From: an uncultured archaeon
GTDB lineage: Archaea > Asgardarchaeota > Heimdallarchaeia > Heimdallarchaeales > Heimdallarchaeaceae
Direction of reading: 5' to 3'
NCBI GenBank assembly: GCA_964534625.1
Contig: CAZHRF010000001.1
Span: 32,001 to 96,000, forward strand
Length of the DNA: 64,000 bases
Part shown: positions 116 to 24,954 of the stretch, piece after piece
Layout of the letters: the number at the start of each line of letters is the position of its first letter
Position numbering within the stretch: the first letter of the stretch is position 1
The notes under the pieces: generated by a model
Database searches by the model: none
Told to the model about the DNA's origin: nothing
What the model saw: the letters and a program-made list of their open reading frames with translations, nothing else
Position numbers and translations under genes: made by a program

Positions 116-2374
116 GTGTCTGGTAGAACTGAAATGTCTGGTATATTCGGTAACTTTTGGGAAAAAGTCGTTGATCATTTTGAAGACTATGAAATTGATA
201 AAGAATTTTTATTACACAAACTTGCTCTAATTTGTATACTAACTGCAGGTATCATTATTCGACTTTTTTCTTTAATCAAGGGTTATGATATTATTATTAA
301 AGCATTTGATCCCTATGTTCAATTTATAAGTGCCAACTATATTGAACGGAATGGTTTTATAGATTTTGTTCATTGGGTAAAAAATGATTCTTGGTATCCT
401 TTTGGGTTCCATATAGGTAGGGAATTGTATTGGGGCGTACCTATTAGTGCTATTGTTCTCCATTGGTTTCTTAATCTTCTTACTTTTAATGTAACAATGC
501 AACAAGTTGCATATTTTATTCCCGTTATTTATGGTGGATTAACAATTATTGCCTCTTATTATTTGGGAAAAGAAACGATCAGTTCGAGAGCTGGACTGTT
601 GACTGCACTATTTATGTCTATACTTCCCTCTTATGCCTCCCGTAGTGTAGCTGGCTTTTTTGATAATGAATATATTGGAATACTTTTTGTTGTATTGTCT
701 TTATACTTCTTTTTGCGTGCCCTAAAAAGAGATGATACCTTATCAGCATTTTTAGCTGGCATATGCTTAGCTGTGCTTATGGGCAGTTGGGGTGCATATA
801 GATATGTGCTTGATTTACTGCCTCTTTGTGTGTTGTTCTTACTTTTATCGAGAAAAGTGACTTATAATCTAATAAAAACTTATACTATTACTAATTTTGT
901 TGCTATAAGTTTGGGATTTATTGTTAAAAGAGTTATTATGAATAAATTCTTTGGTATAGAAGTAATGATACCCATTTTAATGATAGCTTTGTTAATCTTT
1001 GTTGGGATAATACAAAATATATCAAGAAGTTTGCCTGAAAAAACATTCAAACAAGTACTTCTGATAGGGGCAATAAGTTCAATTTTATTACTTAGTATCA
1101 TTGTGGGTGTGTTACTTTCTGTTGGTATATTTGATAACATAGCTGCCAAATTCTGGGCTGTGATTATTCCACGGGGTAGGGTAGATATACCTATTATTAA
1201 TTCAGTGAGTGAGCACCAACCTATGCCTTGGGGTTCACTATTCAGAAACTTCCACATACTAACATTTTTCATGCCGTTAGGGATATATTATTGTTTAAAA
1301 AAGCCAACTGATGTTAATATATTTATTCTAGTTTTTGGTGTTTCTGCTATCTATTTCACTGGATCTATGATACGGTTGGTCTTACTTTTAGCACCCGCTG
1401 CATCATTATTAAGTGCATTAGCTATAGATAGGATACTATACCCTTATTCGTTGAGTGCTCATGGAAAAATAGCTTTAACTCGAAGGAAAGTACGTATTTC
1501 CAAATCAATAGGGCGGGATGAAGCAATGATTGCCTATATTGTGATATCCTTACTCTTGTTGACTTTTGTCTTCCACTGTGTAAAAATCTCTGAAGGTTAT
1601 GCTGCACCGGAGATGGCACCGCCGTCACCATATGGGAATTCTGTACCTATGACTGATTGGCAAGATGCATTAGCTTGGTTAAGAGAAAATGCTCAAGGAC
1701 CTGGTGTTATTCCTAATAGCCCTTCTGTTGTTTTGAGTTGGTGGGATTATGGTTATTGGATAACCAATTATGGTAATGCTACTACTCTAGTAGATAATGC
1801 TACGACAAACAAAACGCAGATTGGTACTGTGGGTACTATGCTTATGTGGAACCTCACCGAATCTATACGGTTAATGTATAGATATAATGTCAAATACGTG
1901 TTGGTCAATAGTCAAGCTGGTGTTACTTGGTTGGGTTCTGATCTAGGAAAATCTGCTTGGTGTATCCGTATTGCAGAAGCCGATGTCCCTCATTATGGGA
2001 TTAAAGAATCTGATTACATTGTAGAAGAAAGTGATGGGAGGCGCATTTATGCGAAACCTTTCTATGAATCAGTTCTATATAGATTATCGGCATATGACAA
2101 AGACACTGGTTTTGCATTTGACGGGCAGTATGGGCCCACAGGCCAAAATGCTCCATCTATATTTGCAAAAGCATCAGATTATCCTGTTAAAGATTTAAAA
2201 GGGCCTGATGGTCATATATACTTTACTGAGGTTTATAGAAGTTACGGATTGGGAACTGACTCCGCAGGTACAGGAAGAGCCTTTCCGGGTGTGCGTATTT
2301 ATGAAGTTATTTATCCTCCAAATATAGCCCAATTAGCAGCTGAACTTGATATGTTATATCCTAAAAATGGATAA
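116..2374 (+). CDS. stt3: Oligosaccharyltransferase catalytic subunit STT3/AglB, eukaryote-like
   Basis: Multi-TM N-terminal region with FDPY, SWYPFG, SRSVAGFFDNE and SVSEHQP; C-terminal WWDYG and TLVDNAT motifs. Confidence 0.97.
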   Translation: MSGRTEMSGIFGNFWEKVVDHFEDYEIDKEFLLHKLALICILTAGIIIRLFSLIKGYDIIIKAFDPYVQFISANYIERNGFIDFVHWVKNDSWYPFGFHIGRELYWGVPISAIVLHWFLNLLTFNVTMQQVAYFIPVIYGGLTIIASYYLGKETISSRAGLLTALFMSILPSYASRSVAGFFDNEYIGILFVVLSLYFFLRALKRDDTLSAFLAGICLAVLMGSWGAYRYVLDLLPLCVLFLLLSRKVTYNLIKTYTITNFVAISLGFIVKRVIMNKFFGIEVMIPILMIALLIFVGIIQNISRSLPEKTFKQVLLIGAISSILLLSIIVGVLLSVGIFDNIAAKFWAVIIPRGRVDIPIINSVSEHQPMPWGSLFRNFHILTFFMPLGIYYCLKKPTDVNIFILVFGVSAIYFTGSMIRLVLLLAPAASLLSALAIDRILYPYSLSAHGKIALTRRKVRISKSIGRDEAMIAYIVISLLLLTFVFHCVKISEGYAAPEMAPPSPYGNSVPMTDWQDALAWLRENAQGPGVIPNSPSVVLSWWDYGYWITNYGNATTLVDNATTNKTQIGTVGTMLMWNLTESIRLMYRYNVKYVLVNSQAGVTWLGSDLGKSAWCIRIAEADVPHYGIKESDYIVEESDGRRIYAKPFYESVLYRLSAYDKDTGFAFDGQYGPTGQNAPSIFAKASDYPVKDLKGPDGHIYFTEVYRSYGLGTDSAGTGRAFPGVRIYEVIYPPNIAQLAAELDMLYPKNG

Positions 2375-2669
2375 ACTCTTTTCTTCTTATTTTTTCTATT
2401 TTTTATTGGAATATTTGAAGAGATGTTTTAGATTATTCTTATTTGTAATATAATCTTGGTACTTTCGCTCCGTTAGTCTTTGTAGTCTTAGTACTATTTG
2501 TTACACTTTTTACATAAAGAATTGAAATTAATCAGAAATATAGAAGATATGTATGTGTTCAGTATAGAACCTCTCTTTCAATTAGTGTTCAAAGATGGGA
2601 CTAATTTTAGTTAAGCTAATAGGTTGCTCTTTAATAGTAAAATTTTAATTGTTTTGATGATGAAATAAA

Positions 2670-3440
2670 TTGAATAATATGACTAATTTTATCCATAAAA
2701 TCATAAATCTATTTAAAACAGAGGAAACAAAATTTAAAACAGAAATGACAGAGAGACTAGAAAAAGAAAAACATATTAATTTAAAGACCGTCAATACAAA
2801 ACTGCCCATAGATAACCGTATTTGTTTATTTCAAGAAATTGTGAAAAAAAGAAGAATTAACGGTGTTTATCTTTCGAAACACTATCATTTCTTTTTAATG
2901 TCTGAAATGGATATTTCAAATATAAAAACAAAATTAAAAAGAGAAGGAAGAATAGAAATAAAAGATTTTTTCCAAAAGTGGAATGTAGACAAGAAAGTAA
3001 TCGCTAGTTTACTAAACCAATTTGAGCGGGGAATTATGGGTAAGAGAGAATATTACGCTATCTCTCACCTAGAGAATAGTTATTATTCAAAACTTAGGAA
3101 CGTTGATGAATATGAACTTGAAAAACTAGAGGACGAAAACAAAGATTTGTCTATGGAACAAATTCATAGCATCATAAATAACCTTATTGAGACAAAAAGA
3201 TTAAAGGGCACTATACAAAGCAATTCAAAATATCTTAGTGGTTCTAAATTCAGAGAGATTATGACCGAATATCTAGAAAAATTAGCAGAAAAATTTATTG
3301 AAATTTCTTTTAGTAAAATTAGCAGAGAACTAGAAATAAAAAAATCAGAAATTGAAACATTTCTGATTGAATATGTAAAAAAGAATCCCAGCAAAATTAC
3401 TATATATCCCTTAGACCAAAAGATTATATTCAAAATATAA
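2670..3440 (+). CDS. Hypothetical protein with probable tandem winged-helix (PCI/UFL1-like) repeats; start may be ATG 2679
   Basis: 256-aa ORF; WH-like segments GRIEIKDFFQKWNV, LIETKRLKGTIQSNSKYLS and EISFSKISRELEI. Confidence 0.55.
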   Translation: MNNMTNFIHKIINLFKTEETKFKTEMTERLEKEKHINLKTVNTKLPIDNRICLFQEIVKKRRINGVYLSKHYHFFLMSEMDISNIKTKLKREGRIEIKDFFQKWNVDKKVIASLLNQFERGIMGKREYYAISHLENSYYSKLRNVDEYELEKLEDENKDLSMEQIHSIINNLIETKRLKGTIQSNSKYLSGSKFREIMTEYLEKLAEKFIEISFSKISRELEIKKSEIETFLIEYVKKNPSKITIYPLDQKIIFKI

Positions 3441-24842: not shown

Positions 24843-24843
24843 T

Positions 24844-24954
24844 TTATTCGGGTTCTTCACTTTTTCCTATTTCATATGTGTGATAAAATAGTGTAAATAT
24901 AACTCCTAAAATCACCAATGCTATTACAATTGTTTTTATTACTGTAAAGTCCAT
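24844..24954 (-). CDS. 36-aa single-TM microprotein, OST4-like candidate (not in ORF track)
   Basis: MDFTVIKTIVIALVILGVIFTLFYHTYEIGKSEEPE*; BRE/TATA-like AAAAGAAAAGCTTATTAA upstream; fills the gap convergent with the 964-aa gene. Confidence 0.62.
   Translation of the reverse strand: MDFTVIKTIVIALVILGVIFTLFYHTYEIGKSEEPE

Follow-up and report, generated by a model that had tools for sequence, protein, structure and literature searches.

Does an archaeon of the family Heimdallarchaeaceae build a multi-subunit oligosaccharyltransferase (OST) of the eukaryotic kind around its catalytic STT3 protein? N-glycosylation by an OST of several subunits, docked to the translocon, is a hallmark of the eukaryotic endoplasmic reticulum (ER), and the inventory and form of OST subunits in Asgard archaea constrain how the eukaryotic machine was built. 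We examined this question in a 64,000-nucleotide stretch of DNA (the window; positions 32,001-96,000 of contig CAZHRF010000001.1, the first contig of a 3.37-Mb assembly of 120 contigs that is 89.8% complete), which has a G+C content of about 30% and offers a clean example, with all the candidate parts in one 25-kb stretch. Those relatives of the window proteins that carry names belong to Candidatus Heimdallarchaeum and Heimdallarchaeaceae, which marks the organism as an Asgard archaeon of Heimdallarchaeaceae type. An earlier, sequence-only reading of the window had proposed that four non-adjacent genes there encode STT3, an OSTC/OST3-6-like protein, a Wbp1-like GIFT-domain protein and an OST4-like peptide, accompanied by a sequon-laden surface protein. 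All five open reading frames (ORFs) were recovered where that reading had placed them, with the correction that the shortest, of 36 codons, is on the minus strand and convergent with the surface protein gene. With moderate confidence, we conclude that the organism probably has a multi-subunit, eukaryote-like OST comprising STT3, an Ost4-like helix, an OSTC-like protein, the GIFT-domain protein and a ribophorin I homologue encoded elsewhere in the genome.

The gene at 116-2374 (+) encodes a protein of 752 residues that profile searches place firmly with the eukaryote-type STT3 proteins. Its N-terminal membrane domain matches the Pfam STT3 model with an E value of 4.7e-46 (158.5 bits against a cut-off of 24.5), and the STT3/PglB core domain is matched at 33.8 bits (cut-off 23). 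The catalytic motif WWDYGYW occupies residues 542-548, in the context SWWDYGYWI (541-549), and both it and a second STT3 motif, DNATTNKTQ, are invariant in 21 orthologues. Among PDB chains the closest is human STT3A (1.8e-89), and STT3B and yeast Stt3 (3.6e-78) are also matched, whereas the values for AglB fragments from archaea and PglB from bacteria are only 4e-6 to 2e-4. This is the sole STT3 copy in the assembly, and its orthologues within the family are 62-66% identical. The Pfam and PDB profile matches thus bear out the STT3 identity that had been read from the sequence.

The second candidate, at 9293-9718 (+), is a 141-residue protein with three transmembrane (TM) segments by hydropathy. 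It exceeds the cut-off of the Pfam OST3_OST6 model (PF04756; 32.3 bits against 27), with the match confined to profile positions 183-278 of 294, which constitute the membrane part. When the protein was compared with all PDB chains, the significant matches were human and canine OSTC only, with human OSTC (6s7o_H) aligned at an E value of 4.6e-4 over residues 30-135 of the query and 27-130 of the 149 in the chain. A 21-sequence family profile gave the same outcome (OSTC at 8e-4), and neither the protein nor the profile matched any Ost3, TUSC3 or MAGT1 chain in the PDB. The orthologues are uniformly 141-146 residues long, and PF04756 is matched by all 20 of 20. No N-terminal luminal thioredoxin domain with a CxxC motif was found in the protein, which is too short and consists of the membrane part only. 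A split version of the Ost3 luminal domain elsewhere in the genome was also considered and rejected, the partial OST3_OST6 thioredoxin-like matches being ordinary cytosolic-type WCGPC thioredoxins. The membrane-only Pfam match, the restriction of PDB matches to OSTC, the three TM segments and the uniform length of the orthologues therefore place the protein in the OST3/6-OSTC family, with OSTC/DC2 architecture and without a thioredoxin domain. The profile matches thus support the OSTC/OST3-6-like identity given to this three-TM protein by the sequence-only reading, and specify it as of the OSTC rather than the Ost3 type.

The smallest candidate (24844-24954, minus strand) is a single-TM microprotein of 36 residues, with a hydrophobic core at 5-23 that would form one TM helix, resembling Ost4 in size and topology. 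A tblastn-type search found one clear match in each of 30 of the 31 family genomes, including the source genome, and in the 29 relatives it is always in a short open frame, at 45-68% identity. Such conservation of one short open frame means that the ORF is a real gene. The family shares the motif MDF..T-(TM)-FALFYHAFSxGKEEE. Across 301 Asgard genomes, the family profile matched 27 of the 28 sampled family genomes and gave marginal matches elsewhere, two of which look orthologous on inspection; one comes from a different family within the order and the other from a different family within the class, and both likely orthologues have a short frame, an MD-type start, a helix, the YH pair and an acidic tail. 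Searching 1.84 billion representatives with the profile returned five clusters only and no eukaryotic OST4, and no informative neighbour emerged from an ESM Atlas feature search with the peptide (best 0.83). Sub-threshold matches to the Pfam Ost4 model in the source genome and the 301 Asgard genomes were rejected, as they contained in-frame stops or were pieces of larger frames. A TATA-like sequence lies upstream of the ORF, but we gave it no weight, as the G+C content there is only about 30%.

We used complex prediction to ask where this peptide might sit, in a joint fold of STT3, the OSTC-like protein and the peptide that used a separate alignment for each chain and scored the peptide as the partner. 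The complex model score (ipSAE) was 0.75 in three runs, against 0.00 for the best of three controls; that mark was attained by 58 of 80 solved complexes and by 2 of 110 mismatched pairs. At least 90% of the contacts are common to the three runs, with a predicted local distance difference test score (pLDDT) of at least 78 for the partner. On STT3, the confident contacts of the peptide involve residues 29-55 and 474-493, with others at 156-169 and 438-451; hydropathy and alignment to STT3A identify the first two of these segments as TM1 and TM13. Yeast Ost4 nestles between Stt3 TMH1 and TMH13 (PMC7226087). The predicted site of the peptide corresponds to this groove, which supports the proposal that it works like Ost4; to homology of the microprotein with Ost4 the complex model gives no support.

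The fourth gene, at 11088-12110 (+), encodes a 340-residue type I membrane protein and candidate Wbp1/OST48 counterpart, with a signal-peptide-like N-terminus, an extracytoplasmic GIFT domain at about 28-295, a C-terminal TM segment at about 304-333 and a short tail. Hydropathy places its hydrophobic segments at 5-23 and 308-326, and an AlphaFold2 (AF2) model has helices at 3-17 and 304-333. This model was obtained with a 64-sequence alignment (pLDDT 84.9) and replaced a poor one based on 31 close sequences (pLDDT 59). In structural comparison with VIA-align, it matched IFT52 (Z 23.9/23.3), OST48 (22.6-21.5) and Wbp1 (21.1-19.7), ahead of the next best at 18.7 or below and of GATase1-like folds at 16.2 or below; the match to OST48/Wbp1 spans about 230 residues (Z 19.7-22.6), and Foldseek gave a tie between IFT52 (6.6e-9) and Wbp1 (1.0e-8). 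The second (middle) luminal domain of OST48 is missing, with the GIFT domain ending at about 295 and the TM segment beginning at about 304. The protein is about 100 residues shorter than OST48, and the aligned OST48 ranges end at about 303-342 of 410 modelled residues. Taken alone, its sequence matches Pfam models weakly (ABC_transp_aux 9.8e-5, OST48_N 0.069, IFT52_GIFT 0.094), and at 12.9 bits it does not reach the curated OST48_N cut-off of 36 bits; OST48_N is matched by 15 of 31 close orthologues, and the best E value of any orthologue is 2.3e-6. The family ranges through the Heimdallarchaeia, including Hodarchaeales, and its profile, searched against a 5.8-billion-protein set, found Asgard proteins only and no eukaryotic OST48, in a search limited by its word index. 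Neither sequence nor fold decides between OST48 and IFT52 for this protein, and from the model "Wbp1-like" is a plausible description. We favour the Wbp1/OST48 reading because of the OST48-like topology and the linkage of the gene to that of the OSTC-like protein.

Beyond the window, a ribophorin I (Ost1) homologue is encoded on contig 3 (25033-26436, within a 696-residue open frame; 77.2 bits), which puts at least one OST subunit of the assembly outside the window. Like the OSTC-like family, the ribophorin I family is retained in single copy across the Heimdallarchaeaceae. The wider search of the genome that the sequence-only reading had envisaged was thus productive for ribophorin I, but matches for Ost2, Ost5 and ribophorin II (Swp1) stayed below cut-offs. 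The best match to the Pfam DAD model (22.1 bits, E 4.2e-4, cut-off 27) lies in the C-terminal 64 or so residues of a 356-residue multi-TM ORF on contig 51 (15671-15880) and was not accepted; the match could be spurious or mark a fused segment of the Ost2 type. The sub-threshold matches to Ost5 and Ribophorin_II, involving a permease-like multi-TM protein and a weak 13-bit match, were likewise rejected.

Another way to view the four genes is through their arrangement in related genomes. The OSTC-like and GIFT genes are separated by 1.4-7 kb in four of the family's five genera and by 40 kb in the remaining one. The whole set of four fits within 25 kb in the source genome, 27 kb in two complete genomes and 52 kb in another genus, three genera in all, and the gene order varies between genera. 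The peptide gene of the largest genus comes within about 7 kb after the OSTC-like gene, and one genome of that genus has STT3 80 kb off on the same contig. For comparison, if two unique genes were placed at random in 3.37 Mb, the odds of both landing no more than 25 kb from STT3 on either side would be about 2e-4. The intervening genes of the window encode EF-1alpha, RPA, RFC, a TFIIB-like protein, Cdc6, a KaiC/roadblock/GTPase operon and a Tad-like ATPase. With such unrelated housekeeping genes in between, "dispersed", as the earlier reading had it, is the right word, and the region is a loosely conserved neighbourhood and not an operon. The STT3, OSTC-like, GIFT and peptide genes are nonetheless loosely linked in all five genera of the family. 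In three incomplete genomes (G010, G017 and G028; 72-82% complete) the OSTC-like and GIFT genes are absent together, as is STT3 in two of them, a joint absence that fits one unassembled region rather than gene loss.

A plausible client of the enzyme is encoded alongside. The 964-residue protein at 21948-24842 (+) contains 28 N-x-S/T sequons, compared with 15.1 +/- 3.3 in composition-matched shuffles (z 3.9), and has the highest sequon density among the 30 window ORFs tested, so that its description as sequon-laden was well founded. Hydropathy indicates an N-terminal hydrophobic segment (signal peptide) and a C-terminal anchor, and no Pfam family was matched. Judging by these features, the protein is likely a glycoprotein substrate and not a part of the OST. 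We infer from the results as a whole that small accessory subunits probably attach to the membrane domain of STT3, in the manner of subcomplex II of the eukaryotic OST. The 36-residue Ost4-like helix would be wedged between TM1 and TM13, the three-TM OSTC/DC2-like protein would be the other small partner of STT3, and the GIFT protein, in a Wbp1/OST48-like role, would probably add an extracytoplasmic scaffold together with the ribophorin I homologue. Such an assembly would occupy the cell membrane, possibly coupled to the Sec translocon, and would transfer lipid-linked glycans to exported proteins, for instance the 964-residue protein, at their N-x-S/T sites.

A number of observations weigh against this interpretation. 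The Pfam Ost4 model (PF10215) matches neither the microprotein nor its 28 orthologues, searches with the microprotein return no PDB OST4 chain at E values up to 10, and an hhalign comparison with human OST4 (sequence from PMC5988510) gives P 0.15, aligning just LFYH with VLYH. As for the complex model, it could be recalling solved OST structures, and its control partners folded poorly (pLDDT 34-43), so that they may not test whether any hydrophobic helix enters the groove. No confident contact of the peptide with the OSTC-like chain is listed in the model either. Thus, of the OST4-like peptide originally proposed, the position on STT3 has gained a predicted docking but the name has found no sequence support from Pfam, the PDB or hhalign, and of the proposed STT3-OST4-OSTC subcomplex the prediction recovers the interface between the peptide and STT3 (0.75) but no confident one between the peptide and the OSTC-like protein. 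For the GIFT protein, profiles of IFT52 and of the GldG type fit no worse than OST48, and its sequence leans slightly to the former: at E values up to 0.01, its 64-member family matches IFT52_GIFT in 44 members, ABC_transp_aux in 34 and OST48_N in 23, and the family profile finds IFT52 in the PDB at 1.9e-6, compared with 0.2 for OST48. The absence of the OST48 middle domain from the modelled protein counts on the same side. The Wbp1-like proposal accordingly holds as far as a type I membrane protein with a GIFT domain is concerned, but not in any preference for OST48 over IFT52. The gene linkage could reflect inherited gene order, since the unrelated housekeeping genes between the OST candidates are themselves syntenic; in two genomes outside the family, one of them labelled Hodarchaeales, the GIFT gene lies between those for S19e, Elf1 and RPA and has neither an STT3 nor an OST3 gene within 10 kb, nor was a similar peptide found beside it. 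Finally, Pfam models for Ost2/DAD1, Ost5 and Swp1 found nothing above cut-offs, which in a 90%-complete genome does not imply absence.

These observations would be accommodated if the true OST parts were STT3, the OSTC-like protein and ribophorin I only, with the GIFT protein an unrelated surface protein (glycan-binding or GldG-like) and the peptide a generic small membrane protein in the same conserved region. The profile preferences of the GIFT family, its lack of the middle domain, the setting of its gene among ribosomal and replication genes outside the family and the want of an Ost4 signal in the peptide sequence all speak for such a restricted set. However, no ABC transporter gene adjoins the GIFT gene, and the type I topology of its product is that of OST48, unlike the cytosolic IFT52. 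The peptide is moreover predicted to dock in the Ost4 groove with high model confidence while controls score 0.00, and the supplement to Eme et al. 2023 (PMC10307638) reports WBP1 candidates of Heimdallarchaeia that reverse BLAST and HHblits bore out. We therefore regard the restricted set as unlikely, though it deserves to be taken seriously. It is far less probable, in our estimation, that STT3 acts as a single-subunit AglB-like enzyme, with accessory homologues that serve other purposes or play no part in glycosylation. Single-subunit enzymes indeed make up most of the oligosaccharyltransferases of archaea and bacteria (PMC7226087), and a glycoproteomic study of a cultured Asgard archaeon reportedly found no clearly eukaryote-like glycobiology (PMC11284389). 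Yet the OSTC-like protein and ribophorin I belong to specific OST-subunit families, each kept in single copy across the Heimdallarchaeaceae, OST1 of the Lokiarchaeon MK-D1 binds ribosomes in vitro (PMC11417166), and the complex model favours an interface between the peptide and STT3. The multi-subunit OST with all five components is thus the interpretation that we prefer.

A further extension of the multi-subunit interpretation is more doubtful, and we offer it only tentatively. The OSTC/DC2 form without thioredoxin and the Ost4-like helix might be the ancestral partners of STT3, already assembled into a membrane subcomplex in Heimdallarchaeaceae together with the single-domain GIFT protein, which might represent a pre-duplication ancestor of both OST48 and IFT52. 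If this were true, the translocon-docking OST-A type would be older than the Ost3/6 oxidoreductase type.

Several other genes of the window deserve mention. Between STT3 and the OSTC-like gene, a 256-residue protein (2670-3440, +) matches the Pfam E3_UFM1_ligase model at 25.4 bits (cut-off 23.2) along with a PCI domain, and may be a UFL1-like winged-helix protein. Its gene is directly upstream of a tight row at 3585-7137 (+) encoding a KaiC-like ATPase, a Roadblock/LC7 protein, a FIST protein, a Ras/Arf-like small GTPase and a 102-residue Cys-rich protein, a composition suggestive of a small-GTPase signalling module of the Asgard kind. The gene immediately downstream of the GIFT gene encodes a 437-residue soluble protein (12334-13647, +) that matches no Pfam family. 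In a genome of another genus, an ORF that is alike in size and position (440 residues; L077 4795-6117) occupies the same place and is followed by RPA. Further along, at 16834-19605 (-), a T2SSE/VirB11-type ATPase of 448 residues precedes a pair of small multi-TM proteins that match no Pfam family, and the three could constitute a divergent Tad/type IV pilus-like assembly set.

How does the proposed complex compare with known systems? The closest counterpart is human OST-A, with its STT3A-OST4-DC2/OSTC subcomplex (PDB 6S7O, 8B6L). The window STT3 is closest to STT3A (1.8e-89), the three-TM protein of about 140 residues aligns to OSTC over its whole length, and the 36-residue one-helix peptide is predicted at the same TM1/TM13 groove as Ost4. 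The differences are that OST-A is an ER complex, whereas an archaeal one would sit in the cell membrane, there being no ER, and that the window peptide has no significant OST4 similarity and carries an acidic C-terminal tail. Yeast Ost3/Ost6 and human TUSC3/MAGT1 are like the 141-residue protein in their C-terminal membrane part (PF04756), but possess a luminal thioredoxin domain and a first TM helix, both of which the window protein lacks. With OST48/Wbp1 (PDB 6S7O chain G, 6EZN chain G), the window GIFT protein has in common the GIFT fold, its extracytoplasmic placement and a single C-terminal anchor; it differs in the absence of the middle domain and in falling below the Pfam OST48_N cut-off. 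IFT52 equals OST48 in structure match and is better in sequence profile, but is cytosolic, whereas the window protein is of type I membrane topology.

The nearest comparison is with other Asgard archaea. Eme et al. 2023 described Asgard homologues of Ost1, Ost2, Ost3, Ost4, Ost5, Swp1 and Wbp1, with Ost4 and Ost5 in most Asgard classes, Ost3 widespread, and Ost2, Swp1 and Wbp1 restricted to Heimdallarchaeia (PMC10307638), which confirms the remark of the sequence-only reading that OST accessory homologues had already been reported from this group. Carilo et al. 2024 modelled a Sec61/OST/TRAP translocon for Lokiarchaeon MK-D1 and showed that its OST1 tail binds ribosomes (PMC11417166), and a 2026 preprint likewise lists Asgard OST48 clusters. 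Co-translational action at the Sec translocon, which we would suppose here too, is therefore an idea already published (PMC10307638, PMC11417166). Because Heimdallarchaeia homologues were published before, the gain from the window is incremental. Its additions are small: the OSTC-type architecture of the Ost3-family member, a GIFT protein equidistant from OST48 and IFT52, the predicted docking at the Ost4 site and the loose four-gene linkage across the family. Two of these are testable points, namely the OSTC/DC2-type Ost3-family member and the conserved 36-residue peptide at the predicted Ost4 site. With the same subunit families, in the same class, and the same proposal of translocon-linked N-glycosylation as the Asgard OST sets of Eme et al. 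2023 and Carilo et al. 2024, the window is a sound further instance of a published kind: real, coherent and largely known already.

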